Shown one piece after another: positions 2,197-34,867 of a stretch of DNA of 38,756 nt. Under the pieces are notes generated by a model. The model had not been told where the DNA came from. It worked only from the letters and a program-made list of their open reading frames with translations, and did no database searches. This DNA comes from an archaeon (lineage in GTDB: Archaea; Nanobdellota; Nanobdellia; Pacearchaeales; GW2011-AR1). How positions within the stretch are numbered: the stretch's first letter is position 1; each line of letters starts with the position of its first letter. The DNA is taken from positions 1 to 38,756 of the forward strand of contig JAUVHP010000001.1 of the NCBI GenBank assembly GCA_030593225.1, in the 5' to 3' direction. A program made the position numbers and the translations under genes.

Positions 2197-2267
2197 TTTT
2201 TATTTTTTTTGTAAAAATGTAGTGTATAAACGTAACATTTAAATAATATGTAGTGTATAATTATATT

Positions 2268-9987: not shown

Positions 9988-10212
9988 AATAGATTAAAAT
10001 AATAGTATGTTAAAAAGTTTTGCAAATTTTATTACTATAAACCAGTAAAAGTATTTTTCTATTAGCTAGTATTGTAAAATATACTTTGCAAAACATTTAT
10101 AAGTTAATTCTTTTCTGAATATATAGATTGAAATATATATCTAAACAAATAAAATGAAGGCAAAAATAAAATTTTTCAATGCATTCAAATTCCTACAAGG
10201 AAGTAAATTTAA

Positions 10213-10479: not shown

Positions 10480-10571
10480 GAAAACCATTGCCCCTGAAAA
10501 TGATTGAATTGACTTAGTGGTAAGTGTGCTTTTTGTTTCTTTTTGGTTTATACTTCGTTATTTCCTTCCTT

Positions 10572-10587
10572 GTGTACTTGAGTACAC
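10572..10587. promoter_or_regulatory. Inverted repeat GTGTAC-ttga-GTACAC, preceded by ccttgtgta as at 21273 and 24172
   Basis: Read directly from the sequence. The half-site cYTTGTGTA recurs upstream of both cdc48 operons. Confidence 0.35.
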
Positions 10588-10621
10588 GGCGGAAGCAAAG
10601 TGCCTCGTCTAAACTTCCACC

Positions 10622-10672
10622 CAAGGGTGTACCCCGAAAAATTTTTTTCAAAGATTTTTACTAAGGGCAAAA
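10622..10672 (+). repeat. Copy A of a conserved 51-nt element (copy B at 24223-24273)
   Basis: The ungapped alignment has 44 of 51 identical bases: caagggtgtacYccgaaa..tttttt.caaa....tttactaagggcaaaa. Confidence 0.6.
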
Positions 10673-10770
10673 AATAAATCAAAAAATGGGGATTGGAAAT
10701 TAGAGAAGTGGGAAATATTAAATTTTTTTGAAATCAATGGTTTTTTAAATTATTTTTAGATAGAATTGTT

Positions 10771-10786
10771 AATGGCTTCGTAGCTC
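10771..10786 (+). repeat. Exact 16-nt duplicate of the tRNA-Lys 5' end plus 3 upstream nt (aatggcttcgtagctc)
   Basis: Identical to 10873-10888. It is followed by an unusually GC-rich 86-nt spacer. Confidence 0.7.
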
Positions 10787-10875
10787 TGCTCGGAACCACG
10801 CTCGGGATTGGCAAGAAGGTTTGTCCTTCGCGTAATTCCTCGGCCTGGTCTGACCAGTCTTCGTAGTCAACAAAT

Positions 10876-10950
10876 GGCTTCGTAGCTCAGCCTGGTCAGA
10901 GCATCAGACTCTTAATCTGGGTGTCGCGGGTTCAAATCCCGTCGAGGCCA
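10876..10950 (+). tRNA. tRNA-Lys(CUU): tRNA-Lys (anticodon CUU)
   Basis: Manual cloverleaf: acceptor ggcttcg/cgaggcc, D arm gctc-agcctggtc-agagc, anticodon stem tcaga/tctgg with loop ctCTTaa, T arm gcggg-ttcaaat-cccgt, discriminator a. No encoded CCA. Confidence 0.9.
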
Positions 10951-10962
10951 TTCATTTTTAAT

Positions 10963-11286
10963 ATGGTAATCAGATTTTGTCCTACGTGCAAAGGGATTTT
11001 AATTTTGGGAAAAGAAAAAGCAGTTTGTCATAGTTGTGGTTTTGTTCAATATTCTAAAGTGGTTTTATCTTCAAATGAAAAATTACCTGAAAAAGAAGAA
11101 ATTGGCGAGGGTGCTGTTAAAGGGGAAAATGTTTTTGCGACTTATGAACATAAATGTAAAAATTGTGGGTATGATAAGGCACAAGTTATTGATTGCGGTA
11201 TTTTTTATTCTGATGAAGATAATTTGATTTTTTTAAAATGCGGTAAATGTGGAACTTCAGAACGAGTTGGTGATAAGGCTTTGTGA
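10963..11286 (+). CDS. TFS/RPB9-like double zinc-ribbon paralogue with altered catalytic loop
   Basis: N-terminal ribbon CPTC..CHSC. C-terminal ribbon CKNC..CGKC with IFYSDEDN in place of the canonical QTRSADEP. The ATG at 10963 was chosen because the tracked ORF start at 10921 lies inside the tRNA. Confidence 0.75.
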   Translation: MVIRFCPTCKGILILGKEKAVCHSCGFVQYSKVVLSSNEKLPEKEEIGEGAVKGENVFATYEHKCKNCGYDKAQVIDCGIFYSDEDNLIFLKCGKCGTSERVGDKAL

Positions 11287-11303
11287 AATTTTAATAAATT
11301 TTT

Positions 11304-11609
11304 TTAACTATAATCTCTCCAAGTTTCTTCGCATTTTATACACTTAAAGAATTTTGTTGGTGCCTCGTCTGAAGAACGTGTTTGTTGCATCCAAAAATAT
11401 GCTTTTTTATGTGAACATTTTGGACATTCTTCATCTACTATTGGGTGAATGTCTATTTTTTTTGAAATTATTGGGATTTCTTTTCTTTCGTTTATTTTTT
11501 CTATTATTTTAATATCTGCTTTTTCTTTGGAAGTATAATTGCATCTTGGACAACCTGCGTTTTTTGTTTTTTGTACTAGAATCGCTCCGCACTTTGGACA
11601 GAATAACAT
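11304..11609 (-). CDS. tfs: Transcription factor S (transcript cleavage factor)
   Basis: MLFCPKCGAIL..CPRC N-terminal ribbon. CPKC..QQTRSSDEAPTKFFKCIKC C-terminal ribbon with the acidic loop. A TATA-like tttttaaa lies about 21 nt upstream of the ATG at 11609. The longer tracked ORF to 11684 is a spurious extension. Confidence 0.9.
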   Translation of the reverse strand: MLFCPKCGAILVQKTKNAGCPRCNYTSKEKADIKIIEKINERKEIPIISKKIDIHPIVDEECPKCSHKKAYFWMQQTRSSDEAPTKFFKCIKCEETWRDYS

Positions 11610-11611
11610 AT
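11593..11611. repeat. Left attachment-site core (19 nt, tttggacagaataacatat), spanning the tfs start codon
   Basis: Identical to 20274-20292. The extended 64-nt homology 11581-11644 versus 20262-20325 has 50 of 64 identical bases, ungapped. Confidence 0.75.
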
Positions 11612-11653
11612 TGAACCTTAATAATGCGGATTTAAAAAACTTACGAAAAAAAG

Positions 11654-11812
11654 ATGGAAACAAAAAAACAAACCCAAAACCCAAAATTCAAATTTTACAG
11701 CAAAGGCGATAGAATCTATTATAAGAATTTCAATTTTAACGATGATTTTAACGAAGGTTTGCCCTATGCTGAGGAATTAATTAAAGAGGTGTTGGAAAGT
11801 GGCAAGAGATAG
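11654..11812 (+). CDS. Small hypothetical protein (52 aa) of the element
   Basis: Hand-translated ATG ORF METKKQTQNPKFKFYSKGDRIYYKNF.. that is below the ORF-track cutoff. No motif. Confidence 0.3.
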   Translation: METKKQTQNPKFKFYSKGDRIYYKNFNFNDDFNEGLPYAEELIKEVLESGKR

Positions 11813-11828
11813 CGTTAATGCCGTTAAA

Positions 11829-12020
11829 ATGGCTCATAAAAAAACAATCCTTGGGACTATTTCTAAACTTAGAAAGAAAAAACTAAGTTATTCTCAAATC
11901 GGTAGTAAATTAAGTTTAGACAAAGCCGCGGTTTACATGATTCATAAAAGAAAATGGTATCCAAAAATGCCCGATGTTGAGGGAAGAATTCTTGCAAGAA
12001 TTCAGGAGTTGAGAAAATGA
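11829..12020 (+). CDS. Small HTH DNA-binding protein
   Basis: LSYSQIGSKLSLDKAAVYMIHKRK is helix-turn-helix-like. The ATG at 11829 lies inside tracked ORF 11799..12020. Confidence 0.55.
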   Translation: MAHKKTILGTISKLRKKKLSYSQIGSKLSLDKAAVYMIHKRKWYPKMPDVEGRILARIQELRK

Positions 12021-12199
12021 GTCTTGAAGAAAAACTTATCGTATGGAAAGGGTATTATTCTGAAAAATATCATAAAAAATATTGTGCTAAAATTCCTGAA
12101 TCTAAATTTTTAGAGCTTTGGAAGAAATTTAAAAATTTTAAGGGAAGTCAAAAATATTTTTATTTTAAATATATGAATCCACAAAAAATTTTAGAATGA
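12017..12199 (+). CDS. Hypothetical protein (60 aa)
   Basis: ATGA overlap with the preceding gene. Confidence 0.45.
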   Translation: MSLEEKLIVWKGYYSEKYHKKYCAKIPESKFLELWKKFKNFKGSQKYFYFKYMNPQKILE

Positions 12200-12509
12200 A
12201 AATGAAAAAACTCTATTGTGAACTTAGTCCTTTTCAAAGATTTCTAAAATTAATAATTAACACAGAAACTAAAAAAATCGACTTAGTAACTGGAGTTAGT
12301 ATTTTGCTGAGAAGATAAAATATATTAATCGAAATTAGCGGTTAGATATTCAAATAGACTACAAATAACAAACTTACAATAGCGACGCTAATAATAAGTT
12401 TTATTAAAAATTTGATTAAAAATAATATCTTCTTAAATAAATAAATTAAGTTCGTAAGTTTAGGCTTAATTTTTCAATAGTACTAAGTCGAGTTACTAAC
12501 TCAAAAAAA

Positions 12510-12821
12510 ATGGGAAAACCAAAAAAAGATTACACAAAAACAATTAATTTCGGCAGGGTTGGAAGTCCTGCAAGAATACTTGTAGAAATGTATATTAAAG
12601 AAAATGGAAACAATAAACTTTCTAAATTAATGCAAGAATTAATTATAATTTATCTCTCAGATGACCCAAAATTTAAAGGTTGGAAAAAAGAAAAAATGAT
12701 TTTTGAAAAAAAGAAATTGGGCGAAGAAATTGTTGAGAAAGTAAAACAGCGAGAGGATTTAGATAAAAGATTTATAAAAAAATTTGGGAAAGCAGAATTC
12801 GCAAAAGCGTTTTATTCATAA
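12510..12821 (+). CDS. Hypothetical protein (103 aa)
   Basis: ORF with a charged, helical-looking sequence. It follows the AT-rich repeat-flanked region. Confidence 0.55.
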   Translation: MGKPKKDYTKTINFGRVGSPARILVEMYIKENGNNKLSKLMQELIIIYLSDDPKFKGWKKEKMIFEKKKLGEEIVEKVKQREDLDKRFIKKFGKAEFAKAFYS

Positions 12822-12845
12822 TAATTAAATTTAATGGAGGTAAAA

Positions 12846-12950
12846 ATGACAGAAGATATAACAAAAAGGTTTGAAGAACTTGAAGCAAGAGTTAAAGCTC
12901 TTGAAGAAAAGAAAGTCGAAGAACCATCAACCGCACCTGCAGTTGAGTAG
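12846..12950 (+). CDS. Small coiled-coil-like protein (34 aa)
   Basis: GGAGG lies 6 nt upstream of the ATG. Sequence MTEDITKRFEELEARVKALEEKKVEEPSTAPAVE. Confidence 0.35.
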   Translation: MTEDITKRFEELEARVKALEEKKVEEPSTAPAVE

Positions 12951-13027
12951 GGTTTTTCGCAATTTATTTTTATTATTTTATTATTTTATAGAAGACAACT
13001 TAATTAAATCAAACAGGAGGAAAAACA

Positions 13028-13276
13028 ATGGAAAGAAAACAAACACCCTTTAGATATGATGAATCCCTAGAGAAAGATATTGATGAATGTAAAAAGTGTC
13101 AAAGATGGGGAAGTAAGAAAAATCAGGCAATTATTCATGCCGTTCAAATTGCGGCACAAATCATTCGAGCATCAAAACCTAAAAAAGAAAGTAATGGATA
13201 TAGTGATTATTATAATGTTAAAGAAGCAATTGAAAAGAAGTTTAAGGTTAAAGTTGAATTGGATAGTGGATATTAA
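13028..13276 (+). CDS. Hypothetical protein (82 aa)
   Basis: AGGAGG lies upstream of the ATG. No motif. Confidence 0.5.
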   Translation: MERKQTPFRYDESLEKDIDECKKCQRWGSKKNQAIIHAVQIAAQIIRASKPKKESNGYSDYYNVKEAIEKKFKVKVELDSGY

Positions 13277-13287
13277 ATTTATTGCAA

Positions 13288-13520
13288 GATGATATCACGT
13301 TGCATGATCTAAAAAGTGATATCATTGTTCCTGGACCTGCAATAATGATATCAAAACACGATCGTGAAAAGATATCAAATTTATCTGCAGACAAAAAAGA
13401 TATCACTTCTGATCTAAAGTGATATCAAAGTGGCCGTAAAAAAAGATATCATCTGTTCCAGGAACAATGATATCAAAAGAAGATCATGAAATGATATCAG
13501 CTCCAGGTCACGATATCACA
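13288..13520. repeat. Array of ten GATATCA (mostly TGATATCA) iterons
   Basis: GATATC starts at 13291, 13318, 13347, 13371, 13399, 13421, 13445, 13469, 13493 and 13512, giving spacings of 19-29 nt. The array lies in the gap between convergent gene modules. Confidence 0.85.
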
Positions 13521-13527
13521 TTAGATT

Positions 13528-13782
13528 CTAAATTATAAAATTATATAATTTTTTTTGATAAGGAGAAATAACTTTTTTATCAGGTTGAATTTTATAATAT
13601 TTTGTAAGCTCCAAAAAAAAGTATGCTCCTGCTCCAATAAATGAAGAATAAAAAACAGCTCCTAAATTTTGAATTCCACTAAGCTGTAACGCGGTTAATG
13701 TTGAAAAAAAAGTAAATCCCCATGTGCAAAAAGCTTTAATCCCAATTGTTCTCCAAAATATTTTTTCTTCTTTACTTAACAT
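13528..13782 (-). CDS. Small membrane protein (84 aa)
   Basis: Two hydrophobic segments. The internal ATG at 13782 is preferred because it overlaps the end of the upstream small ORF. Confidence 0.55.
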   Translation of the reverse strand: MLSKEEKIFWRTIGIKAFCTWGFTFFSTLTALQLSGIQNLGAVFYSSFIGAGAYFFLELTKYYKIQPDKKVISPYQKKLYNFII

Positions 13783-13912
13783 TTTTCTTTCCCATCTCCG
13801 CTTTAATTTCAGCCTCACTAACATTCAACCTTTTCTTTAAAACCTCTAAGGTTGCTTCTATACGCTTGTTTTTCCCTCGCTGTTCTTTTGAAATCAGATT
13901 TTTTATTCTCAT
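13772..13912 (-). CDS. Small basic protein (46 aa)
   Basis: Hand-translated MRIKNLISKEQRGKNKRIEATLEVLKKRLNVSEAEIKAEMGKKNVK. ATGA overlap with the upstream fibre-like gene. Confidence 0.4.
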   Translation of the reverse strand: MRIKNLISKEQRGKNKRIEATLEVLKKRLNVSEAEIKAEMGKKNVK

Positions 13913-21839: not shown

Positions 21840-24133
21840 AAAAAAAACAAATTCAATTGAAAGTTACTGAGGCATTGCAGGACGATGTTTACAAAGGTAT
21901 TGTGAGAATTGATAATTCTATTATGAGGGAGATTGGAATTAATCGAGGAGATATTGTTTTGATTAGAGGTAATCGTGAAACTGTTGCAATGGCTGACAGG
22001 GCTTATCCTTCTGATATTGGTCAAGGAATTATTCGGATTGATGGAATTTTAAGAAGAAATGCTCGGACAGGTATTGGGGATGTTGTGGCAATTTCAAAAG
22101 CTTGTGTTAGTGAAGCAAAAAAAATTACAATTGCTCCTGCACAAAAAGGAATTATGGTTCAAGGAGAGCCAGAACATTTGAGACGAGGATTGTTGGGCCG
22201 AACTGTTGTTAAGGGAGATTTAGTTGTTTTAGGAGGTGTTCAGCGAAGGAAAGATTTATTGTCAGATGATTTTGGGGATTTGAATGATGTGCTTGGAAAT
22301 ATGTTTAATGGAATGGGGCTTGGAAATTTGGGAGGTGGAATTTCACAGATTAAGTTTAGTGTTGTTAATGTTAGTCCTACTGGTCCGATTATAATTACTG
22401 AAAAGACTGAAGTTGTTTTAAATTCAAAAGCAGTTGATATTATAGAAGATAGTATTTCTGAAATTAATTATGAAGATATTGGAGGGTTAGGTGAGGAGAT
22501 TAAAAAGATTCGTGAGATGGTTGAGATTCCTTTAAAGCATCCAGAGATTTTTGATAGACTTGGTGTTGAGCCACCAAAAGGTGTTTTGCTTCATGGTCCT
22601 CCTGGAACAGGTAAAACTTTATTAGCGAAGGCTGTTGCAAATGAATCAGAATCTAATTTTATTTTACTTAATGGTCCTGAAATTATGAGCAAGTATTATG
22701 GTGAGAGTGAGAAAAAGATAAGAGATATTTTTGCAAATGCTGAAAAAAATGCTCCGTCAATTGTTTTTATTGATGAAATTGATGCGATTGCTCCCAAGAG
22801 AGAAGAGGTGCATGGTGAGGTTGAAAGGCGTGTGGTTTCTCAAATTTTGACAATGATGGATGGGTTACAATCTCGTGGGAAAGTTGTTGTAATTGGTGCA
22901 ACAAATAGAGTTAATTCACTTGACCCTGCATTAAGAAGACCTGGAAGATTTGATAGGGAAATTGAAGTTGGAGTTCCTGATAAAAATGGGCGTCTTGCGA
23001 TTTTACAAATTCATACTCGTGGAATGCCATTGAACAAGGATGTTAATCTTAAAAATTTAGCTGGTTTGACGCACGGATTTGTTGGTGCTGATTTAGAATC
23101 TTTGTGCAAAGAGGCGGCAATGAATGTTTTGAGAAAAGTTTTGCCTCAAATAAAGCTTGACAGCGAGGAACAAATTTCTCCTGAGGTTTTGGAAAAGTTA
23201 GTTGTAAAATATAGTGATTTTATGGATTCTTTAAAAGTTGTCAGACCTTCGGCAATGAGGGAAGTTTTAGTTGAAACACCTAATATTAATTGGGATGATG
23301 TTGGAGGTATTGATGAAGTTAAAGAAGAATTAAAGGAAGCAGTTGAGTGGCCGATAAAATATCGAGATAGTTTTAAGAGAATTGGAATTAGACCTTCTAA
23401 GGGGATTTTGCTTTATGGTCCGCCTGGAACAGGTAAGACACTTTTGGCAAAGGCAGTTGCTAAAGAGAGTGAAGCGAATTTTATTCAGATTAAAGGTCCG
23501 TCGCTGTTATCTAAATGGGTGAATGATTCTCATAAAGGAATGCAGAAAGTTTTTGAAAGGGCTAGGCAGGTTGCACCTTGCATTATATTTTTTGATGAAA
23601 TTGAATCTCTTGCGTCAAAGAGAACTGTGGGTGACAATGGGTCAAGTCAAGAGGCGACAAAAGTTTTAAACCAAATGCTTGCTGAGATGGATGGGCTTGA
23701 GGATTTGAATGATGTTTTGGTTGTCGCAGCGACGAATAGACCTGATATGCTTGATACAGCTCTTTTGCGTCCAGGAAGATTTGATAGAGTGTTGCTTGTA
23801 AATGCTCCTGCTGAAGAAGGTAGAAAAATAATTTTAGATATTCATACAAAGAAAATGCCTTTGGCAAAAGATGTAAAAATTAATGAAATTGCAAGGAAAA
23901 CCGAAGGGTATACTGGTGCTGATTTGGAATCATTAACTCGTGAGGCAGGTATGCTTGCACTTAGAGAATCTATTGATTCAAAAGAGGTTTGTAAAAAACA
24001 TTTTGATGAAGCATTAATTAAAATTAAACCTAGTGTAACTAAAGCAGCGATTAGTGTTTACCAGAAGATTGAGGATAACTTTTTGCAGTCGGCAAAGGCG
24101 GCTATTATTCCTAGTGCAGGGTATTTAGGATAA
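21833..24133 (+). CDS. cdc48: Cdc48/VCP/VAT-type AAA+ ATPase (paralogue 1)
   Basis: N-domain motif, two AAA modules each with [15 protein letters not shown], Walker [10 protein letters not shown] / IIFFDEIES, and SRH RPGRFDR twice. Confidence 0.95.
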
Positions 24134-24273: not shown

Positions 24274-24704
24274 TGAGTTTTTTTGATGACGATAATGAAA
24301 TTGGAATAGAAGATATATTTAGTCGTTTAACTGGTGGAGGTGGATTTAGAAGTAATTCTCGAAATGAGAGTTTTGTAGAAATTTCTGATTCTTCTGGTAG
24401 AAAGCAATTTGCAGAAGTGTTTAAAGAACTTCCTTGGAAAAATTTTCTTTTGGACAGAGTAGTTACAAAAAAAGCAATTCATTTTATTTTTGATTTTTCT
24501 TCTAAAAAAAATATTTTTGTGAAAGTTAAAGATGAGTTGATTATAAATAATTATAATAAAAAAATTTCTACTGGAAAAAAAGTTTTACTGATAGAAGAAA
24601 AAGGGGAGCTAATAACAAATCCTTTCTTGCTTGAAAATATTAAAACTTCTAAATTTGATTTTACTTTTAATAATGGTATCTTGGAGGTATCTTTTAAAAA
24701 ATGA
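24273..24704 (+). CDS. Divergent Hsp20/alpha-crystallin-like small heat-shock protein
   Basis: The C-terminal pattern [38 protein letters not shown] resembles the beta7-beta9 region of sHSPs. ATGA overlap with the following cdc48. The ATG at 24273 is preferred to the GTG at 24228. Confidence 0.55.
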   Translation: MSFFDDDNEIGIEDIFSRLTGGGGFRSNSRNESFVEISDSSGRKQFAEVFKELPWKNFLLDRVVTKKAIHFIFDFSSKKNIFVKVKDELIINNYNKKISTGKKVLLIEEKGELITNPFLLENIKTSKFDFTFNNGILEVSFKK

Positions 24705-27031
24705 AAGAAAGCAAATTATCTTTAGATATTGTTGAGGCAAAGCAGAATTTTAGAGATAAAAATATAGTATCCATTTCTACAGAAGATATGGAAGATCTTA
24801 AAATTTCTTCAGGCGATTTTGTTTTAGTGGGAAATAGTAACAAAATTGTTTTTAGAGTTATAAGAGGAGAGGATTTGCAAAAAGGAAAAATTGGAATAGG
24901 AGGAATTATTAGGAGTTCTTTGGATGTATCTTTAGAAGAAAAAATTGAAGTTTCGCCAATTAAAAAATTAAATAAAATTAATTCTTTTGAAATTGCAGTA
25001 TTGGAAAATTCGGAAGTATCTAATGATGATATAGAAAAAAACTTAATCCCTGCTTTAAAAAAAGAGGAAAATAAATCTTTTTTAAAGCAACAATTTGGAG
25101 GGAATGTGGTTTCTTTGAAACAAAGAATTAAAGTAATTTTTCCTGGAGGAATTTCTGTTATTTGCGGAGTTACTAGAATCATTCCAAAGAAATTTGCTTT
25201 TGGATGTTTCAATAATGACGTAAAAATTTTGATTTCTAGTTCAGTCGAGAAGGGATCTGGTGTTAATGTTTATTATGAAGATATTGGTGGCTTGAAAGAA
25301 GAGATAGAAAAAATTAGAGAGATGGTTGAATTTCCAATGAAGCATCCAGATATTTTTCAGAGGTTAGGTATTAGTGCTCCTAAAGGTGTGCTTTTAACTG
25401 GTCCGCCTGGAACTGGTAAGACTTTATTGGCGAAGGCAGTTGCAACTGAGACAGATGCTAAATTTATTTCTATTGCTGGTCCTGAAATTATGAGTAAATA
25501 TCATGGAGGGTCTGAGGAAAATCTAAGGGCTAAATTTGAAGATGCTGAAAAAAATGCTCCCGCTATTATTTTTATTGATGAGATTGATGCTATTGCTCCG
25601 AAGAGGGGGGAGAGTCACGATCAAACTGAGAAAAGAGTTGTAGCACAATTATTAACTTTGATGGATGGTTTGAAATCTCGAGGGCAATTAGTTGTTATGG
25701 CTGCGACAAATCGACCGGATGATTTAGATGAAGCATTGAGAAGACCTGGGCGGTTTGATAGAGAGCTTAAAATTAATCCTCCAACAGATGAAGGAAGAAA
25801 AGAGATTTTGAAAATTCATACAAGAAATATGCCGTTAGATAATAGGGAGAAAATTTTAGATGAGTTTTCTAAGAAGACTTTGGGATATACTGGTGCTGAT
25901 TTGGAAGTTTTATGTAAGGAGGCTGCATTAAGAGCGGTTAAACCTTTTTACAAGGAGTTGGTTAATTTTGGCGAGGAGTTAGAGTCTTCTGATGAGGAGT
26001 CTTCGATTAATTTGGAATCAAAAAAGCAAAAATTATTATCTTCGATTGTGGTGAATAGTGAACATTTTAATTATGCTTTGAGAAATGTTGAACCGTCGGC
26101 AATGCGTGAGGTTTTGATTAATAAGCCGAATGTTACTTGGGGTGATATTGGTGGTTTGGAAAAGGCAAAGGAAAAATTAAGGGAATTAGTTGAGTTGCCG
26201 TTGCTTCGTCCTGAGTTATTTAAGATGGCTGGTATTAAACCTTCAAAAGGTGTTTTGCTTCATGGTCCTCCTGGAACTGGAAAAACTCTTTTGGCAAAAG
26301 CAGTTGCAAATGAAGCGAATGCGAATTTTATTTCTGTTAAAGGTCCTGAATTAGTTAGCAAGTGGGTTGGAGAATCAGAGAAACATATTCGTGAGATTTT
26401 TAAGAAAGCACGGCAGGTTGCTCCGGCAATTATTTTCTTTGATGAGTTTGATTCAATTTCTAAAATGAGGGGCTCTGGTCTTTCAGATTCAACTGAGAAA
26501 ATTGTTAATCAATTATTAACTGAATTAGATGGTGTTGAGGAGTTGGAGAAAGTTGTTATTATTGCTGCGACAAATAGGAAAGATTTAATTGATGAATCAT
26601 TGTTGAGAGCAGGAAGAATTGATGCACATGTTGAGTTGCCGATTCCTGATAAAGTGACGAGGGAAGCGATTTTTAATGTTCATTTGAAGAAAATGCCTCT
26701 TGGTCCTGGCGTGGATATTAAGAAAATGATTGACAGAACAGAGGGTTGGACTGGGGCAGATATTGAAGTAACTGCTAGGGAAGCGGGAATGAGAGCAATT
26801 AAGAGAGTTTATGGGAAGAAAGATGTTAAGAAATTTGAGATTACAAAAGATGATTTTGATTTTGCTTTGAAGAGTATTGGAGAGCAGATTGGGAAAGGAG
26901 AGAAGGAAGAGGAGAAAAAAGAAATGGGAGAAGAGGAAATGCAAAAGATTATGAAGGAGATGGAGAAATCTAAGAGGAAGGTTGAAGAGAAAGAAGTTAA
27001 GAAAAAAGTTGTGAAGAAGAATTCTAAATAG
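24701..27031 (+). CDS. cdc48: Cdc48/VCP/VAT-type AAA+ ATPase (paralogue 2) with divergent N-domain and long Lys/Glu-rich C-terminal tail
   Basis: Two AAA modules ([15 protein letters not shown] twice, [25 protein letters not shown]). The tail reads [46 protein letters not shown]. Confidence 0.95.
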
Positions 27032-27931: not shown

Positions 27932-28834
27932 TTATTTTCTTCTTCTAAACATTACAACCCCAAATGCTCCAAGTGTAAGTGTTAAAAATAATGAAACTAT
28001 AATGCCTCCAGTTGTTCTCAAACCTCCAATAACTGCACCAGTTATTCTTGAGATTATGTTTTTATCTTGAATATTTTCTTGCAAGTTTATTGTATCTTCA
28101 CTACATTCTAAAATTTCTATAGGCTTATTTTCTATTGCAAAACATTCTGGATAAACTTTTGTACAAGTTCTTGTCATCGTCCCATTTAGATTACATTCAC
28201 TCCATTCTGTACATTCCCAATTAGTTATACATCCTCCATCTGTTCTTGAACTTTTATCATTAGAGGAGGAATCTTCTGAACTAATTATAATCTGAGTAAT
28301 TGTAATTTCTTTAGGTTTTGAAGTAAATTCTTTATCCCCAATTTTTGCTTTTAAGAAAGCTTGATGTGTTCCTGTGTTGAAATGTGCTGTATTAATAGTT
28401 ATTTCATAAACTAATTCAGTTGCTCCAATTCCATAACCATAGCCGTATCCATACCCATAACCAAAATCATATCCATAAGAATTATCTTGCCCATAACCAT
28501 ATCCGTAACTTCCACTATATATTCCAGATAGTTTTTTTACCATAACCCCGTTGCAGTTATCTCCAATAATTTTTCCATCAAGATTAAATGTGCAAACTTT
28601 ATCTCCAATGTTTAACATTAAGGATTTAATTGGTAAATATTTATCCATTGATTCAATGTTTAGCGTAGCTGTGAATGTTATTGTTTCTCCTGTGTTTACT
28701 TGATTAGCTCTTTTAATATCTAAATCTAAAATAAACGCTTGTGCTGGTCCTGTAAAAAGAATAATTGTTAAAACAAAAATACTTAACATGCTTGCAATTA
28801 TTTTATGGGAGTGTTGTTTTATTTTATTTCTCAT
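27932..28834 (-). CDS. Cell-surface protein: signal peptide, Ig-like region, Gly-Tyr repeat, Cys/Trp-rich module, C-terminal TM anchor
   Basis: N-terminal hydrophobic signal ending AQA, GSYGYGYGQDNSYGYDFGYGYGYGYGYG, CITNWECTEWSECNLNGTMTRTCTKVYPEC, and anchor IIVSLFLTLTLGAFGVVMFRRRK. Confidence 0.8.
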   Translation of the reverse strand: MRNKIKQHSHKIIASMLSIFVLTIILFTGPAQAFILDLDIKRANQVNTGETITFTATLNIESMDKYLPIKSLMLNIGDKVCTFNLDGKIIGDNCNGVMVKKLSGIYSGSYGYGYGQDNSYGYDFGYGYGYGYGYGIGATELVYEITINTAHFNTGTHQAFLKAKIGDKEFTSKPKEITITQIIISSEDSSSNDKSSRTDGGCITNWECTEWSECNLNGTMTRTCTKVYPECFAIENKPIEILECSEDTINLQENIQDKNIISRITGAVIGGLRTTGGIIVSLFLTLTLGAFGVVMFRRRK

Positions 28835-28886
28835 GCTTTTTTAAATGAAAATTTTATTTATAAACTTTATGGAAATGATTATTCTA

Positions 28887-28930
28887 GAGTAACAAAAAAG
28901 TTTATATAATCTTTTTTTGACTTTTTTGGA
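28887..28930 (+). promoter_or_regulatory. Duplicate copy of the GT2-operon promoter, followed only by an 8-codon ORF
   Basis: 38 of 44 bases identical to 29125-29167, including gtttatataat. Confidence 0.5.
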
Positions 28931-29124
28931 GGGAATATAATGAAATTAAAGATTTATTTGAAATAAGGCAAAATAAAGAAATAGCTTATTTTACTAAAAT
29001 TAAGTATGCTTCAAGATTTTATATTGGCAAGTTTAAAATTTGTAAAAGAATAAATAGGGAAGATATTAAATTTAATTTGAAAAATATAAATCCTTTAAAG
29101 AATTCTTGAAATTTCATTGGTTTT

Positions 29125-29167
29125 GAGTAATAACAAAGTTTATATAATGATTTTATGATTTTTTTGG
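29125..29167 (+). promoter_or_regulatory. Promoter of the glycosylation operon (TATA gtttatataat about 20 nt before the ATG at 29168)
   Basis: The position and the TATA-like box were read directly. Confidence 0.55.
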
Positions 29168-30100
29168 ATGGAGTATTCAATTATAGTTCCTGTTTATAAT
29201 GAGAAAGGGAATATCACTAAGTTAGACGAAGAAATTAAGAAAGTAATGAGTCGGTCTTCTAAAGAATTTGAAATTATTTATGTGAATGATTGTTCAACTG
29301 ATGATTCTTTGGATGAGTTGAAATCTTTGAATAATGTCACAATAATTGATATGAATCGGAATTATGGGCAAACAACTGCATTAGATGTTGGATTTAAATA
29401 TGCGACAGGAAAATACATAATATCTCTTGATGGAGATGGACAAAATGATCCTAAAGACATACCTAAATTATTTAAAAAAATGAGGGAAGATAATTTAGAT
29501 GTTGTTTGTGGTTGGAGAAAGTATAGGGCAGATAAATCTGGAATTAAAATTTTAACTAAAGTAGGCAGATTTGTAAGAAGAATTTTTATTAAAGATAATG
29601 TCCATGATACAGGTTGCACCTTGAGAGTTTATAAGAAAAAGGCAGTTAAATCTCTTGATTTGCAGGGAGAAATGCATCGTTATATTATGGCTCTTTTGAG
29701 ATGGAAGGGATTTAGAATTGGAGAGGTTATTGTTAATGATAGAAAGAGGGAGAATGGAGTTTCTAAATATGGGTATTCTAAAGCAATTAGAGGATTAATT
29801 GACTTGGGTTATATTTGGTTTATCCAAAAATATTCACAAAGACCTTTACATCTGTTTGGATATTTAAGTATGTTTTTTATTTTTATTGGAGGGTTATCTT
29901 TGGGGGAATCTATTTTTGCGAGAATTTTTTGGGAAACATCTTTGAACAGAAATGGTTTTTTCTTTTTGGGATTTTTCTTTATTATGATGGCTGTCATGTT
30001 TATGTGCTTTGGAATAATTATTGATTTGTTAATTAAAATACAATTACAAACATCATCTCATGAAAAAAGATATTATGTTCGTAAGATTATTAAAAAATGA
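29168..30100 (+). CDS. GT2 polyprenyl-phosphate glycosyltransferase (GtrB/ArnC/DPM1-like) with two C-terminal TM helices
   Basis: SIIVPVYNE, NDCSTDDS and DGDGQNDP motifs, plus a C-terminal hydrophobic pair. Confidence 0.9.
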   Translation: MEYSIIVPVYNEKGNITKLDEEIKKVMSRSSKEFEIIYVNDCSTDDSLDELKSLNNVTIIDMNRNYGQTTALDVGFKYATGKYIISLDGDGQNDPKDIPKLFKKMREDNLDVVCGWRKYRADKSGIKILTKVGRFVRRIFIKDNVHDTGCTLRVYKKKAVKSLDLQGEMHRYIMALLRWKGFRIGEVIVNDRKRENGVSKYGYSKAIRGLIDLGYIWFIQKYSQRPLHLFGYLSMFFIFIGGLSLGESIFARIFWETSLNRNGFFFLGFFFIMMAVMFMCFGIIIDLLIKIQLQTSSHEKRYYVRKIIKK

Positions 30101-31044
30101 AAACTATTTTAGTTACGGGGGTTGCGGGTTTTATTGGTTCTAGTGTTGGTAAGAAGCTTCTTGAGAGAGGGGATAGAGTTATTGGTGTTGATAATATGAA
30201 TGATTATTATGATGTTTCTTTGAAGGAAGATAGGTTGAAGATTTTAAAAGAATTTGAAAATTTTACTTTTCATAAATTAGATATTTCTGAAGGATTTGGG
30301 GAATTAAAGAAAGAGAAGATTGATGTTATTTGTCATTTAGCGGCACAGGCAGGAGTAAGGTATTCAATTGAAAATCCTCTTGCTTATCAAAAGGCAAATT
30401 CTCTTGGAACTTTGCAAGTTTTTGAATTTGCAAGACATAATAAAATTCCAAAAGTTGTTTATGCTTCTTCGTCTTCTGTTTATGGAAATAATAAAAATGT
30501 TTTATTTAAAGAATCAGAGAAGTTAGATGAACAGATTTCTCTTTATGCTGCGACAAAAAAATCTAATGAGTTGTATGCTCATGTGTATAATCATTTGTAT
30601 GGAATAGAAATGATTGGTTTAAGATTTTTTACTGTTTATGGTCCGTGGGGAAGACCTGATATGGCTTTGTTTAAATTTGTAAAAAATATTTTAGAAGGAA
30701 AACAAATTGATGTTTATAATTCTGGAAAAATGCAGAGGGATTTTACTTATATTGACGATATTGTTGATGGGGTGGTTTTGGCTTTAGATAAGAAATGTTC
30801 ATTTGAAATATTTAATATTGCACGAGGGGAGACAACTGAACTTATGGATTTTATTAAAGCTATTGAGAAGGCTTTGGGAAAAGTTGCTGATAAGAATATG
30901 ATGCCTATGCAGGATGGAGATGTTTTATTGACGAGTGGAGATATTTCGCATACAAAAGATGTTTTAGGTTATGCTCCGAAGGTTTCGGTCGATGAGGGTG
31001 TTAATAATTTTGTTAATTGGTATAAAGGGTATTATGGGAAATGA
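30097..31044 (+). CDS. NAD-dependent nucleotide-sugar epimerase (UDP-glucuronate 4-epimerase-like)
   Basis: Rossmann motif GVAGFIGS, SSSSVYG, catalytic YAATK. Confidence 0.9.
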   Translation: MKTILVTGVAGFIGSSVGKKLLERGDRVIGVDNMNDYYDVSLKEDRLKILKEFENFTFHKLDISEGFGELKKEKIDVICHLAAQAGVRYSIENPLAYQKANSLGTLQVFEFARHNKIPKVVYASSSSVYGNNKNVLFKESEKLDEQISLYAATKKSNELYAHVYNHLYGIEMIGLRFFTVYGPWGRPDMALFKFVKNILEGKQIDVYNSGKMQRDFTYIDDIVDGVVLALDKKCSFEIFNIARGETTELMDFIKAIEKALGKVADKNMMPMQDGDVLLTSGDISHTKDVLGYAPKVSVDEGVNNFVNWYKGYYGK

Positions 31045-31352
31045 GAAATTCTAAAAAAATATTTATTGGAGTGATATTTTTTATCATTCTTATTATATCT
31101 AGTATTTTCTTTTATTCTTCTAAAATTGAAAACTATCAAAATTTAAAATCATGTCTAATTTATGGGGAAGCAATCCATATAGAAAGTAGCACTAATATAT
31201 ACATGTCCAATAATAAAATAAATTATAATTGTGATGTCAATCCAACTAAAAATGTTTTTGTGGAGATTGTATCTCTTTTTGGAATAATTTTAGGAATATG
31301 TGTAAACATGATTTTAATTTATTCTTTTACAATTAAACAAGATATAAAATGA
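31041..31352 (+). CDS. Small membrane protein
   Basis: 103 aa with TM segments at the N- and C-termini. ATGA overlaps on both sides. Confidence 0.55.
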   Translation: MRNSKKIFIGVIFFIILIISSIFFYSSKIENYQNLKSCLIYGEAIHIESSTNIYMSNNKINYNCDVNPTKNVFVEIVSLFGIILGICVNMILIYSFTIKQDIK

Positions 31353-31492
31353 AAAAACAAAAGATTTTAATTTTGAATTATGAGTTTCCGCCTTTGGGAG
31401 GAGGTGCTTCTCCTGTGAGTTCTGAATTGGGAAAAGGTTACGCAGAGAGAGGCAATGAGGTTTCTGTTGTGACGATGGTGGGAAGGAGATGA
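31349..31492 (+). pseudogene. Truncated GT4 glycosyltransferase N-terminus (47 codons)
   Basis: MKKQKILILNYEFPPLGGGASPVSSELGKGYAERGNEVSVVTM matches the conserved start of GT4 enzymes, but the frame stops at 31490-31492, overlapping the start of the 751-aa gene. Confidence 0.7.
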
Positions 31493-33744
31493 AAATAAAA
31501 TCTATAAAATCTATAAAAGATTTTCATATTTACAAAAACTTCGAGTGGGATTCTCTACCAGAATTTAAAAAATATAATTTATTTTTTGGGCATAATGGAT
31601 CTGGAAAAACAACTCTATCTAAAATATTTTTATCTATTGAAAAAAAAGAAAAGCCAGAAAAAGGAATTTTTATTATAGAAGATTTTGAAAACAATAAAAT
31701 AAATTCAAATGACTTAGAAACTTTTGAAGATTCAAGCATTTTTAAAACTTTTAATTCAGCTTTTGTTTCTCAAAATATTTCTTTTGATGATTTAAATCCA
31801 AAATGTAATCCTATTTTGTGTATGGGAGAAAAAAATATTGAGACAAAAAAAGAAATTAAGACTAAAGAAGAAAATTTGAAAAATCTAAATGAAGGATTAG
31901 AACTTTCAAAAAAAGAAAGATTGAGTCTAGAAAATAATTTAGATGAAAAAAATAAAGAACTTGCAAGAGAAATAAAAAATATAATTAATTGTAATAAACT
32001 TGGAGATTTCTATTATTCTTATGATAAAAGCAATATTTTAAGAAAAATTGAAGAAGGACTGGATAGCTTAGAAGAAATTTCTAAAGAAAGATATGATGAT
32101 TTAAGAAAAATCATTTCTTCAAAAAAAATTAGTAGAATTGAAATTAAGCAAAAAAATCAAGATATGAAATTTAATTTTGAAGATTTTATTGAAAACTCTA
32201 AAGTACTTTTATCAAAAACTATTATTTCTAATTCAATAGAAAAACTTAAATGTGATTCGGAACTTAATGATTGGACAAGAGTTGGGCTTGATTTGCATAC
32301 CAAAAGAGAAGAGTCTGAATGTCTTTTTTGTGGAAAAAAATTGAATGAAGATTTAATAGAAAAATTAAATGGTCATTTTAATGATGAATCAAAAAGAATG
32401 ATTGCCGAAATAGATTCCTTAAAGAATTCGATAAATACAAATTTTGTTCTAGAACAACCCGTTTTAATAAATTTTCACTTAAAATTTGAAAATAAAATTG
32501 AAGAGATATTAGGAGAATTTAAAATAATAAATTCTAAATTTCATTTATTTAAAGAGCAAATTGATAATCTATTTTCCCAAAAGAAAAAAAACTTTTTTGA
32601 AACATATGATATTCCTGATTATAAATTTTACAATGAATATCAAAATTTAATCAATAAAATTAACAAGATAATAACTGAAAATAATAATCTTGTAGAAAAT
32701 TATGAAGAAGAGATTAATATCGCAAGAAAAGGAATAGAAAATTACCATTTAAAGATATCATTAAATGATGAATATTTTAATAAAAAAATTAAAATAAATA
32801 AACTACAAAAAGAAATCGAAGATTCAACTCAAAAGTGTAAAAAAGTATCAACAGAAATAATATCATTAAAAGATAGTATTTCAAACTTTTTTCTAGGAAA
32901 AGATAATATAAATAAATATTTAGATCAATGTTTTGGACATAAATATATTAATTTAGACTTTGATGACGAGACTAAATCGTACAAAGTTTTAAGAGAAGGT
33001 CGTATAGCAGAAAATCTAAGTGAAGGCGAAAAAACAGCAATAGCTTTTGCTTACTTTTTAGCAAAGCTGAGAGAAGATGGTTTTAATCTAAGCGAATCTA
33101 TTGTCTTTATTGATGACCCTATTTCAAGTTTTGATTCAAATAGAATTTATCTTTGTGCATCTTTGATAAAAAGAACTTTTAATGAAGTGGGTCAATTTTT
33201 TATATCAACTCATAATTTTGAATTTTTTAATCTAATGAAAGATTGGATGAAAAATAAGAATAAAAATAAAGACAACCCAAAATCTGAATTTTATTTTATA
33301 AAAAGAACAAAATGCAAGGGGGAAAGTAAATCTTTAATAGAAGAAATGAATAGAACACTTAAAAATTACAAATCAGAATACCATTATTTATTTTATTTAT
33401 TGGATTGCTTTTTACAAGATAATGAAAATATGGCATATTCAGAATTCTATTTAATTGGTAATGTTGCTAGGAAATTTACAGAAACTTTTCTGAGTTTTAA
33501 AGTTCCAAATTCGAGAGATGTTTCCAGTAAACTAGATGTTTTAATAAAAGAAATAGAATTTAGTGAAATTCAAAAAGAGAGATTGCAAAAAATGCTTAAT
33601 GATGGGTCACATGCTGGAGATATATATAATGCAATTCACCACAAAGATAAAGAAGAATTTGTAGAAATGATAAAAGATTTAATGAGTTTTGTAAAAAAAA
33701 TTGATAAAATTCATTATGATTTTTTAATGAAGGAGATTCAATAA
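31489..33744 (+). CDS. RloC/PrrC-like AAA_13 ABC-type ATPase with coiled-coil CxxC insertion; putative anticodon nuclease / abortive-infection protein
   Basis: Walker A GHNGSGKTT. A ~450-aa Lys/Glu/Asn-rich coiled-coil-like insertion containing CLFC (32320-32331). Signature-like LSEGEKTAIAFAYFLA, Walker B IVFIDDPISSFD, STHN. The C-terminal domain has NVARKFTETF (R-x3-E) and NDGSHAGD. Confidence 0.75.
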   Translation: MKIKSIKSIKDFHIYKNFEWDSLPEFKKYNLFFGHNGSGKTTLSKIFLSIEKKEKPEKGIFIIEDFENNKINSNDLETFEDSSIFKTFNSAFVSQNISFDDLNPKCNPILCMGEKNIETKKEIKTKEENLKNLNEGLELSKKERLSLENNLDEKNKELAREIKNIINCNKLGDFYYSYDKSNILRKIEEGLDSLEEISKERYDDLRKIISSKKISRIEIKQKNQDMKFNFEDFIENSKVLLSKTIISNSIEKLKCDSELNDWTRVGLDLHTKREESECLFCGKKLNEDLIEKLNGHFNDESKRMIAEIDSLKNSINTNFVLEQPVLINFHLKFENKIEEILGEFKIINSKFHLFKEQIDNLFSQKKKNFFETYDIPDYKFYNEYQNLINKINKIITENNNLVENYEEEINIARKGIENYHLKISLNDEYFNKKIKINKLQKEIEDSTQKCKKVSTEIISLKDSISNFFLGKDNINKYLDQCFGHKYINLDFDDETKSYKVLREGRIAENLSEGEKTAIAFAYFLAKLREDGFNLSESIVFIDDPISSFDSNRIYLCASLIKRTFNEVGQFFISTHNFEFFNLMKDWMKNKNKNKDNPKSEFYFIKRTKCKGESKSLIEEMNRTLKNYKSEYHYLFYLLDCFLQDNENMAYSEFYLIGNVARKFTETFLSFKVPNSRDVSSKLDVLIKEIEFSEIQKERLQKMLNDGSHAGDIYNAIHHKDKEEFVEMIKDLMSFVKKIDKIHYDFLMKEIQ

Positions 33745-33745
33745 G

Positions 33746-34867
33746 ATGAAAGGAGATATTAAAAGAAAATCAAAAAAGAAAATGCTATTTATAGCGCCAT
33801 CGCCATTATATTTAGAAAAAGGGTCATCTCTAAGGATGCATTCAATTCTAGAGAAACTATCAAAGCACTATGAAATAGATTTAGTAACTTATTCTTTGGG
33901 GAAGGAGTTTAAATTAAAAAATGTAAAAATTAATCGCACCCCAAAATGGTTTATGCCAGAACTTCCTGTTGGAAAACCTACGAAATCAAAAATATTATTA
34001 GATTTTTTTATGTTGTTAAAAGCAGTAAAATTATCTTGTATAAATAAATATGATGTAATTCATTGTGAAGATTTTGAAGGAATTGGAATTGGTTATTTTA
34101 TTGGGTGGTTAAATTGGAAATCAAGATATGTTTATGATTTGCATAATAGAATATTAGACAATATTCATCTTAATTCAAAACCAAATAAAATTAAAGATAA
34201 TCTTTTAAAATTTTTAGAAAAAAAATTTGCAAATAAATCAGATAAAATAATTTTAAATTGGGGCAAATATTTACAAGATGATTTTTTTAAAGACAGAGAT
34301 AAATTTCTTTATTATGACCCGTTAGAATTATCTGTAGAAAAGATAGATTTACCTGCAAAAAAATATTTGATTTATTCTGGAAACTTTGAAGAGTATCAAG
34401 GATTGAGTGATTTTATTCCAATATTTCTAAAATTTAAAACTGATATTAAACTTATTTTGGTTGGAAATCCTAGTGAGAAAATAAAAGAATTAATAAAAAA
34501 TAATAAGGCTGAAAATAGAATAATTTTAATGGGAAGACTTTCTATAAAAAAGACAAATTATCTTATAAAAAATTCTTTGGCGGGGATTTTGCCGAGGAGG
34601 TCTGGTTCTTGTATGAAGGCGATTCATTATTTCTTGTGGGAAAAATCAGTAATAGCAAAAAATACTTTTTCGAATAGAGAACTTATAAAAAATAATTATA
34701 ATGGATTTTTATATAAAACAGATAGAGAATTAGAAAATATCTTAAAAGAAATATTGAATGGAAAGAAAAAAATTTTTGAAAAATTAAATAAAGGAATATT
34801 GGAAACACGTAAGAAAATTTTTAATATTTGGGACAATGAGGGGTTTATTAGAGAATATGAAAGATAA
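33746..34867 (+). CDS. GT4-family glycosyltransferase
   Basis: N-terminus MLFIAPSPLYLEKGSS and an overall GT-B layout. The C-terminal donor-binding region is divergent. Confidence 0.75.
   Translation: MKGDIKRKSKKKMLFIAPSPLYLEKGSSLRMHSILEKLSKHYEIDLVTYSLGKEFKLKNVKINRTPKWFMPELPVGKPTKSKILLDFFMLLKAVKLSCINKYDVIHCEDFEGIGIGYFIGWLNWKSRYVYDLHNRILDNIHLNSKPNKIKDNLLKFLEKKFANKSDKIILNWGKYLQDDFFKDRDKFLYYDPLELSVEKIDLPAKKYLIYSGNFEEYQGLSDFIPIFLKFKTDIKLILVGNPSEKIKELIKNNKAENRIILMGRLSIKKTNYLIKNSLAGILPRRSGSCMKAIHYFLWEKSVIAKNTFSNRELIKNNYNGFLYKTDRELENILKEILNGKKKIFEKLNKGILETRKKIFNIWDNEGFIREYER

Follow-up and report, generated by a model that had tools for sequence, protein, structure and literature searches.

This study concerns a 751-aa open reading frame (ORF) in a 38,756-nucleotide stretch of archaeal DNA (contig JAUVHP010000001.1 of assembly GCA_030593225.1, positions 1 to 38,756 of the forward strand), the whole of which is referred to here as the window. 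The ORF, at positions 31489 to 33744 within a surface-glycan operon, encodes a protein of the RloC family, an assignment held with high confidence from profile, motif, and fold; the gene, rloC, is an added member of a known family and not a new kind. It directly follows a stub, the truncated 5' end of a family 4 glycosyltransferase (GT4) gene, and such stubs recur in related contigs of DPANN archaea in front of other genes. We read rloC as cargo carried at a recombination hotspot rather than as an isolated disruption. We regard the two layers jointly, a gene for a latent RloC-family nuclease and its carriage as cargo in a DPANN recombination hotspot, as the probable explanation of the locus.

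The Pfam AAA_13 profile matched the 751-aa protein with E = 1.9e-118 over profile positions 2 to 711 of 713 (397.6 bits; cutoff, 36), well past anything that chance would give. Eight PADLOC PDC-S06 models matched it full length (best E = 7.9e-152), and the PADLOC PrrC model covered aa 420 to 733 (E = 3.2e-9). PDC-S06 is a single-gene system that overlaps the RloC/AAA_13 family by content. Relatives in a collection of 5.8 billion proteins were all AAA_13 proteins of 730 to 880 aa with identities of at most 34%, several of which carry the JGI name 'wobble nucleotide-excising tRNase'. An initial annotation, made from the DNA letters and an ORF list, had proposed an RloC/PrrC-like ABC-ATPase with a C-terminal Arg/Glu/His domain. 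The ORF list and translation placed the ORF and all the motifs it quoted where it had reported them, and the AAA_13 and PrrC matches, the triad, and the structural model described below bear the proposal out. Conservation was judged on an alignment of 30 homologues, to which the word invariant refers throughout. The gene and its parts are as follows.

31489 to 33744, + strand: rloC-like gene (751 aa), an ABC-ATPase head split by a coiled-coil/zinc-hook insert, with a putative C-terminal helical (HEPN-type) anticodon-nuclease domain
31588 to 31614, + strand: Walker A/P-loop GHNGSGKTT (aa 34 to 42); G34, N36, G39, and K40 invariant
32320 to 32331, + strand: CLFC (aa 278 to 281), at the tip of the helical insert and a putative zinc hook; C278 and C281 invariant
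33016 to 33216, + strand: C-terminal half of the ATPase head, with LSEGEK (aa 510 to 515), Walker B/D-loop IVFIDDPISSFD (aa 538 to 549), and STHN with switch residue H575
33352 to 33744, + strand: C-terminal all-helical domain of ~130 aa with the putative nuclease triad R661-x3-E665-x42-S707-H708

In the second half of the head, where IVFIDDP spans aa 538 to 544 and STHN aa 573 to 576, the invariant residues were S511, G513, and E514 of the signature, D542, D543, and P544 of Walker B, and the switch residue H575. In the C-terminal domain R661 (within ARKFTE), S707, and H708 (within GSH) were invariant, and E665 was conserved in at least 90% of the homologues. The spacing of these residues falls inside the published R-X3-E-X36-52-(S)H motif (PMC2610378), and a length of 751 aa is within the RloC size range of 658 to 897 aa. 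The C-domain of PrrC and RloC has been classed as a divergent HEPN RNase (PMC3710099).

The closest characterised parallel is RloC of Geobacillus kaustophilus (GkaRloC; Davidov & Kaufmann 2008, PMC2610378; Klaiman et al. 2012, PMC3458546), which the window protein resembles in architecture and size class (751 versus 804 aa), in its Walker A, signature, Walker B, and switch His, in its coiled-coil insert with a central CxxC, in its C-terminal R-x3-E-x(36-52)-(S)H triad, and in standing alone with no restriction-modification (R-M) locus. Residues K40, C278, D542, R661, E665, and H708 parallel the mutated GkaRloC residues K44, C291, D572, R692, E696, and H737, respectively, a correspondence taken from published residue numbers and the hidden Markov model (HMM) matches; K44 of GkaRloC is needed for nuclease activation (PMC3458546). 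Unlike GkaRloC, the window protein has a DPANN host, is at most 36% identical to anything found, and is translationally coupled within a glycan operon. Escherichia coli PrrC, the tRNA-Lys anticodon nuclease of the EcoprrI type Ic R-M locus, likewise combines an ABC-ATPase N-domain with a C-terminal Arg/Glu/His nuclease. However, PrrC has ~396 aa and no coiled-coil/zinc hook, and it always lies in a silencing hsd locus, none of which applies here. Since it has no hsd locus, is twice the size, and carries the insert, the 751-aa protein is not a PrrC.

The AlphaFold2 model built on the alignment was confident, with a mean predicted local distance difference test score of 85.2. A beta-rich head comes first in it, then helices (residues 114 to 482), then the rest of the head, and last a C-terminal domain made up entirely of helices (residues 622 to 750). 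The CxxC (278 to 281) appeared in a loop between helices 257 to 273 and 287 to 296, near the middle of the insert. The coiled-coil-like insert with CLFC reported initially is therefore present, with invariant Cys residues, but its length in the model is ~370 aa (residues ~114 to 482) and not ~450. Foldseek grouped the head of the model with Rad50, SMC, and Lamassu LmuB heads, and PDB sequence and profile searches returned AriA, Rad50, and SMC heads only. Together with weak SMC_N and RecF matches, such hits could suggest a non-nuclease DNA-repair ATPase of the SMC/RecF/RecN/Rad50 type, a placement that we find barely plausible. All these matches are confined to the head, with E values no better than 1e-5. 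The AAA_13 match, by contrast, runs the full length and takes in the C-domain, and the PrrC model matches the C-terminal part. In addition, the R/E/SH triad is invariant, with E665 at the level given above, and no Mre11/SbcD-like partner adjoins rloC in the window. Profile searches and structure prediction thus placed the protein outside the non-nuclease SMC and RecF families, with similarity that reaches into the C-terminal domain.

An observation on the head itself is that, among PDB sequences, the RloC-family profile matched AriA best, the ABC-ATPase of the PARIS defence system (E = 2.2e-5; head residues 2 to 155, window positions 31489 to 31950). PARIS couples an AriA-type ATPase to a tRNA-cleaving effector. 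ATPase sensors of a similar kind thus seem to have been paired more than once with effectors that target tRNA.

By homology to GkaRloC, the protein likely has a latent, self-regulated, wobble-nucleotide-excising anticodon nuclease activity. In the mode of action that we envisage, the Rad50-like ABC-ATPase head with its coiled-coil/zinc hook would keep the C-terminal HEPN-type nuclease silent. A trigger tied to infection or DNA ends, together with ATP hydrolysis, would release the nuclease, which may then cut tRNA anticodon loops (RloC excises the wobble nucleotide) so that translation stops in the infected cell. Such a system would need no R-M partner. The initial annotation had singled out the missing R-M partner, and no hsd-like ORF was indeed found among the larger window ORFs scanned. 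The point was overstated, however: RloC is 'rarely' linked to R-M (8/73; PMC2610378) and carries its own internal switch (PMC2610378, PMC3458546), so a stand-alone copy is the norm.

The surroundings of rloC include the following features, and its neighbours comprise GT2, epimerase, GT4, GT2, GT2, flippase, and glycan-type methyltransferase genes.

29168 to 30100, + strand: family 2 glycosyltransferase (GT2; AglD/Dol-P-glycosyltransferase-like), conserved, which anchors the hotspot on its left side
30097 to 31352, + strand: two genes that separate the anchor GT2 from the stub, an NAD-dependent epimerase (315 aa; Pfam Epimerase E = 3e-54) and an ORF of 103 aa predicted to encode a membrane protein
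31349 to 31492, + strand: GT4 5' stub of 47 codons, of which 43 match the N-terminus of a conserved DPANN GT4, followed by 4 unrelated codons and a stop
33746 to 34867, + strand: complete GT4 (373 aa; Pfam Glyco_transf_4 and Glycos_transf_1), with which the glycan operon continues after rloC, of a different subtype from the parent of the stub

The stub, which reads MKKQKILILNYEFPPLGGGASPV..VVTMVGRR, lies on the operon strand 1275 nt after the anchor GT2, and its homology to full-length GT4s ends at HMM position 40. As annotated initially, its stop overlaps the rloC start (ATGA, 31489 to 31492) and a complete GT4 follows rloC, beginning one base past its stop. A Shine-Dalgarno (SD)-like GGAAGGAG precedes the rloC ATG. 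A DNA profile of the repeat (nhmmer) found one copy in the window (31351 to 31416; E = 1.8e-17), and the same profile recovered all copies in control arrays and none in cassette-free relatives. The G+C content of the stub is 0.417 as compared with 0.21 to 0.24 in the adjoining genes, as would suit a conserved module whose base composition differs from that of its surroundings. The epimerase and the 103-aa ORF have overlapping start and stop codons, an operon context, and no counterpart in related arrays. The anchor GT2 has 1196 homologues at E <= 1e-40. Those that carry names are listed as Candidatus Woesearchaeota, Nanoarchaeota, or 'AglD, uncultured archaeon', which points to a DPANN archaeon as the source of the window. 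Its orthologues (57 to 63% identical) lie directly upstream of stub arrays in contigs L081, L082, and L088-91.

In metagenome contigs the stub is a recurrent module. About 120 metagenome loci yielded at least 56 stubs that differ from one another, and single contigs hold as many as 8. Among the matches listed, 128 fitted the pattern: 69 continue for 289 to 387 codons, 35 meet an early stop, and the other 24 run off the end of their contig. Full-length GT4s of ~365 to 380 aa with the stub N-terminus are common, as seen with index-free HMMER and the DNA scan (consensus RILLLNYEFPPLGGGASPVSYEIAKG..V.VVTMGYKGL...). A word-indexed search with the 47-aa stub had returned short ORFs only (33 to 74 aa, 55 to 93% identical, three on one contig), partly an index artefact, and the idea that this N-terminus exists as stubs only was rejected on the strength of the many full-length GT4s. 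In 15 of the 32 loci with both genes among the matches listed, the full-length GT4 begins 14 to 139 nt after the conserved GT2; in the remaining loci the two are 0.4 to 7 kb apart. GT2 directly followed by a full GT4 is the ground state for the GT4 type of the stub.

Arrays hold 5 to 8 GT4 5' copies per contig, all on the operon strand and spaced 0.66 to 2.4 kb. They are found in the following contigs.

L081 (GCA_053534655.1): a full GT4 preceded by five stub copies
L082/L084: seven to eight stub copies
L088-L091: seven stub copies

In all five loci that hold both forms among the matches listed, the full GT4 copy lies beyond all of the stubs, on the distal side. The repeat in many copies reaches up to about 75 nt upstream of the L-N-Y-E-F-P-P codons, across the ATG, an SD-like sequence, and an A/T-rich box, and its downstream extent varies between copies. 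The full GT4 that closes the L081 array (10188 to 11315) has a precomputed match to Pfam PF20706 'GT4-conflict', a GT4 subfamily of biological-conflict systems, and the window GT4 of 373 aa has no PF20706 match at E <= 1.

Cargo was defined as the gene directly after each stub, which gave 30 non-redundant proteins, mostly of defence or toxin-antitoxin (TA) families.

AAA_14/DUF4143 (PADLOC PDC-S01): 4 to 5 proteins
NYN nucleases (PDC-S09, HEC-09): 5 proteins
MNT-type nucleotidyltransferases (PDC-M05A): 5 proteins
AAA_21/AAA_15 ATPase (HEC-02)
Further cargo: AbiEi, PIN, Phd/YefM, HEPN, SocA/Panacea, DUF3800, and a PEP-utilizer-domain protein

Arrays that are unrelated to one another can carry homologous cargo in different places, with identities of 56% for DUF3800, 58% for NYN, and 34% for MNT proteins. 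RloC (PDC-S06) fits this cargo spectrum. Some hotspot cargo lacks a defence annotation: a 352-aa ORF (L082, 8883 to 9941) and a 314-aa ORF (L144, 1106 to 2050), both with no family matches, and a 370-aa PEP-utilizer-domain protein (L082, 11013 to 12125). Such unannotated cargo ORFs are candidates for new defence or toxin functions.

The relation of the window to these arrays is seen in contig L144 (Ga0182027_10012214), which is syntenic with the window, with the GT2 anchor (41% identity), a stub, an orthologue of the GT4 (46%; L144 2191 to 3282), a GT2 (36%), and the flippase (57%). L144 has no rloC, and the TGA of its stub overlaps the ATG of the GT4 orthologue (ATGA) just as the window stub overlaps rloC. 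The truncation of the parent of the stub is therefore not a consequence of rloC insertion. In the cassette-free relatives L094, L095, and L096, which have operons similar to that of the window, the anchor GT2 is directly followed by a GT4 of the window's downstream subtype with no stub; the window GT4 is 25% identical to the GT4 after GT2 in L094/L096. The rloC gene occupies the slot between stub and next gene that elsewhere holds defence or TA cargo, and the window probably belongs to the hotspot, as L144 and the shared module suggest.

These comparisons bear on the initial proposal that rloC had displaced most of a glycosyltransferase, which did not hold. A unique insertion of rloC into a resident GT4, destroying it and leaving the 47-codon stub, would account for the true homology of the stub to the N-terminus of full-length GT4s and for the start of rloC exactly at the stub end. 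We nevertheless consider it very unlikely, as L144 has the same kind of stub before the orthologous GT4 without rloC, stubs recur 5 to 8 times per contig with unrelated cargo, and the GT4 of the cassette-free relatives is of the downstream type. Moreover, tblastn with full-length GT4s revealed no remnant of the body of the stub's parent GT4 in the window, and no target-site duplication or terminal repeats flank rloC, where only A/T-rich chance matches were seen.

Direct evidence of turnover at the stubs came from two contigs from different samples, L141 (Ga0116174_10031821) and L195 (Ga0116183_1030656), which are 98.8 to 99.8% identical, with L141 longer by ~1.08 kb. A 66-nt stub repeat, which starts 14 nt before the ATG and extends to ...CCGCCGTTG (codons F-P-P-L), is present once in L195 and twice in L141, where the two copies flank the extra ~1.08-kb segment. 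The left L141 copy joins the upstream flank of L195 to five variant bases; the right copy carries one cassette-side variant and is otherwise the same as the L195 copy. This base pattern is the product expected of one reciprocal crossover within CATTATGCTTAATAAAAAACT, and it is consistent with insertion of a circle of the Campbell type or with deletion between repeats. The extra segment contains a Phd/YefM antitoxin, an apparently frameshifted YoeB-like ORF (translation read by eye), a further degenerate stub, and a small ORF.

A second pair of contigs, L129 and L138, was rejected as a stub-mediated polymorphism, the difference being an ordinary insertion sequence (IS) and an unrelated indel. 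L129 (2989 to 4241), relative to L138 (9398 to 9405), carries a 1.25-kb IS-like insertion with a 286-aa ORF that is transposase-like by eye, 15-nt terminal inverted repeats (TGCGTTGTTGCATAA/TTATGCAACAACGCA), and a target duplication of ~7 to 8 nt; it adjoins a surface-protein gene upstream of the GT2 anchor. The two contigs also differ by a ~0.67-kb indel with a 214-aa ORF.

The end points of stub homology, measured against the full-length GT4 HMM for the at least 56 stubs, fell at positions 11 to 16 (n = 10), 24 to 34 (n = 24), and 37 to 55 (n = 13), and singly up to 225. Thus, 47 of 56 stubs (84%) have their end point no further than codon 55 of about 370, with no single breakpoint. This distribution is relevant to a reading in which the stub is the attachment site of a trans-acting site-specific system, an integron analogue or an analogue of integrative mobile elements exploiting Xer (IMEX/pdif), with a fixed crossover in the ...TTYCCNCCNYTGGG core. 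Several short stubs do end within a few bases of one another at the P-P-L-G codons (L082 6113, 8848, and 10943; L084 11278; L141 410), and the CCNCC..GGNGG codons form a short inverted repeat on direct reading of the sequence. The uni-directional arrays with 0.66- to 2.4-kb spacing also resemble integron cassettes, and integrons are known in archaea (PMC9668308). Despite this, the reading is unlikely: breakpoints spread from position 11 to 225, and the crossover in the L141/L195 pair would lie around the start codon, not in the PPLG core. No attC-like inverted repeats were found at the cassette boundaries of the L088 array, only A/T-rich chance palindromes, the gene lists of L081-L091 contained no Phage_integrase match, and no recombinase adjoins the arrays. 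The stub pattern, sought on viral contigs as attP, gave 0 matches. The single integrase in the window (19236 to 20012) is part of a separate 8.7-kb element. The gene divergent from the glycan operon (27932 to 28834) was tried as an integron-like integrase and rejected, its product being a secreted, membrane-anchored GY-repeat surface protein.

The stub could also be a functional small gene or leader (a micro-protein, or a promoter with a translated leader) that drives downstream expression, with the arrays being duplicated regulatory modules rather than recombination scars. This would fit the stop/start overlap with the next gene in both the window and L144, the extension of the repeat upstream into the SD and A/T-rich box, and the substitutions between the 66-nt repeat copies, which are synonymous or conservative. 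The last pattern is equally explained by divergence while part of a functional full-length GT4, and the copies have from 11 to 225 homologous codons, unrelated and non-conserved tails, and some frameshifts (L081 3327, L084 11990), so we hold this possibility to be quite unlikely. The initial annotation had contrasted a truncation with an independent conserved gene; the 47-codon ORF is indeed conserved and recurrent, but as a variably truncated remnant.

Our preferred reading, rloC as hotspot cargo, can be put in mechanistic terms as follows. The mark of the hotspot would be the 5' end of a conserved GT4 gene, which in the usual arrangement comes after a conserved GT2. This GT4 5' module (the first 11 to 60 codons, with shared upstream sequence in many copies) would be repeated one way, each copy before a different cassette, and cassettes would be gained or lost via recombination between stub copies, as in the one contig pair described above. 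Most likely, cassettes are captured through homology at the GT2/GT4-5' junction, which is highly conserved, with no dedicated site-specific recombinase. The recombination may be homologous or homology-facilitated illegitimate, possibly with circles arising from crossover between neighbouring stubs. The retained stub would give the cargo a translation-initiation context and perhaps a promoter, as could apply in the window, where the stub stop overlaps the rloC ATG. We put forward tentatively the broader proposal that the GT4 5' module serves as the recombination site of an integrase-independent, integron-like platform gathering and exchanging defence and TA cassettes within the surface-glycan operon, of which rloC would be one captured cassette, possibly bacterial and perhaps from the candidate phyla radiation (CPR).

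Several points weigh against the joint explanation. On the side of the protein, PDC-S06 is a computational defence candidate for which no experimental test was found, RloC biochemistry is known for GkaRloC only, and nuclease activity of an archaeal RloC would follow by homology. PDB sequence, profile, and fold searches found no PrrC/RloC structure for comparison of the C-domain. The nearest homologues are only 34 to 36% identical, and the best 80 of 363 genomic relatives are all bacterial, at 24 to 36% identity. On the side of the locus, the window has a single stub with no same-type full GT4 downstream, and its own history is read from other contigs; neither a second stub nor a same-type full-length GT4 closing the rloC cassette distally was found in the window. 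RloC occurs at no other stub locus among the matches listed. There is only one clean presence/absence pair, which does not distinguish insertion from deletion. The comparison set consists of metagenome contigs, many short and some redundant (L082/83/84/100; L088-91/166), and the degenerate DNA scan requires at least 14 intact codons, so that sampling is biased and very short stubs are by-catch. Finally, a promoter in the repeat is suggested weakly, by A/T-rich boxes within A/T-rich DNA.

Comparison with known systems disclosed partial similarities. Integron arrays and clusters of attC sites lacking integron integrases (CALINs), including archaeal integrons (Ghaly et al. 2022, PMC9668308), share uni-directional small cassettes of 0.7 to 2.4 kb, mostly with 1 to 2 genes and TA-rich, a repeated boundary element, and cassette presence or absence that differs between near-identical genomes. 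In contrast, the boundary in stub arrays is the 5' end of a protein-coding gene, of variable length and not an attC hairpin, and the arrays have no nearby IntI and are embedded in a surface-glycan operon. The orphan toxin/immunity cassettes of rhs and cdiA loci likewise have a main-gene fragment before each cassette, with homologous recombination between fragments swapping cassettes. However, the rhs/cdi fragment lies just upstream of a variable C-terminal toxin and yields in-frame fusions, whereas the stub is an N-terminal fragment ending in a stop and its cargo genes are independent. In 'replacement' islands of capsule, O-antigen, and archaeal glycosylation loci, a conserved edge gene provides the homology through which a hypervariable glycan cluster is exchanged, and the window and L144 do carry a different glycan gene set downstream of the stub. 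Such islands swap whole glycan clusters but are not known to gather tandem stub-bounded defence or TA cassettes. No description of stub-bounded arrays was found in the literature searched, which is not proof of novelty; the hotspot appears undescribed.

Adding a DPANN protein to the RloC family is of modest use, since R-M and CRISPR are largely missing from DPANN archaea, which are considered to depend on single-gene systems of compact size (bioRxiv 2025.04.20.649705). Defence islands in archaeal metagenome-assembled genomes are reported to be very few (7 in 1453; PMC12259885), and recent surveys place archaeal defence candidates in 'non-canonical contexts'. The present locus offers a concrete, searchable context of this kind, the GT2/GT4 junction in a glycan operon, where defence and TA genes are gathered as stub-bounded cassettes. 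If this is true, the NYEFPPLGGGASPV-coding motif combined with an early stop would be a cheap bait for new archaeal defence genes in unannotated cargo, the arrays would be an example of cassette capture without an integron integrase, and variation of the surface glycan, a virus receptor, would be physically linked to intracellular defence in one locus.

The initial annotation had also considered an archaeal copy noteworthy, which was overstated: RloC was found in 1/45 archaeal genomes already in 2008 (PMC2610378), and a Methanoregula homologue of the 751-aa protein exists (P0012). The CPR lineages Nomurabacteria, Gracilibacteria, Saccharibacteria, and Absconditabacterales are among the best 80 of 363 relatives, and horizontal acquisition of rloC is plausible. 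The G+C content of rloC (0.226) was rejected as a mark specific to the gene, since the entire downstream glycan cluster is equally low (0.22 to 0.25).

The gene at 27932 to 28834 (- strand), divergent from the glycan operon, encodes a conserved secreted protein of ~300 aa with a signal peptide, GYGYGY repeats, a Cys-rich module, and a C-terminal transmembrane anchor. Counterparts that are 28 to 31% identical occupy the same position in L081, L088, and L089, and the product is probably a glycosylated surface protein served by the operon. The intergenic region between this gene and the GT2 contains a 61-nt direct repeat (28878 to 28938 and 29116 to 29176; 80% identical) that includes AAAGTTTATATAAT...TTTTTTGGAGG and looks like a duplicated TATA-box/SD promoter region.

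The archaeal nature of the window is borne out by genes found elsewhere in it: one for topoisomerase I of the archaeal type, which scores above the curated NCBIfam cutoff, one for NreA, and two for CDC48 ATPases. The latter are tandem CDC48-family AAA ATPase paralogues (21833 to 24133 and 24701 to 27031, + strand) with a 158-aa ORF between them; both match the NCBIfam anti-phage IteA model with E values of about 1e-71 to 1e-75, below its cutoff, most likely through generic AAA+ similarity. A 309-aa Fic/DOC-domain protein is encoded at 2253 to 3182 (+ strand; Pfam Fic E = 1.7e-18), 28 kb from rloC. SoFic-type single-gene systems are reported to be enriched in DPANN (bioRxiv 2025.04.20.649705), and Fic/Doc toxins have been noted beside some RloC-like genes (PMC3710099).

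The provirus noted initially corresponds to an integrated element of ~8.7 kb (11577 to 20325), bounded by 68-nt direct repeats (11577 to 11644 and 20258 to 20325) that are 78% identical with an identical core, TTGGACAGAATAACATAT. It encodes a tyrosine integrase (19236 to 20012), a terminase-large-subunit-like fragment (18486 to 19031), a D5-like regulator (17641 to 18402), and many ORFs with no family match. The element lies ~630 nt downstream of a tRNA-Lys(CTT) gene and not inside it. A 19-nt copy (95%) of the 5' end of this tRNA gene is located ~100 nt upstream of the gene (10771 to 10789 and 10873 to 10891) and could either have been left by a previous integration or be a tRNA fragment.

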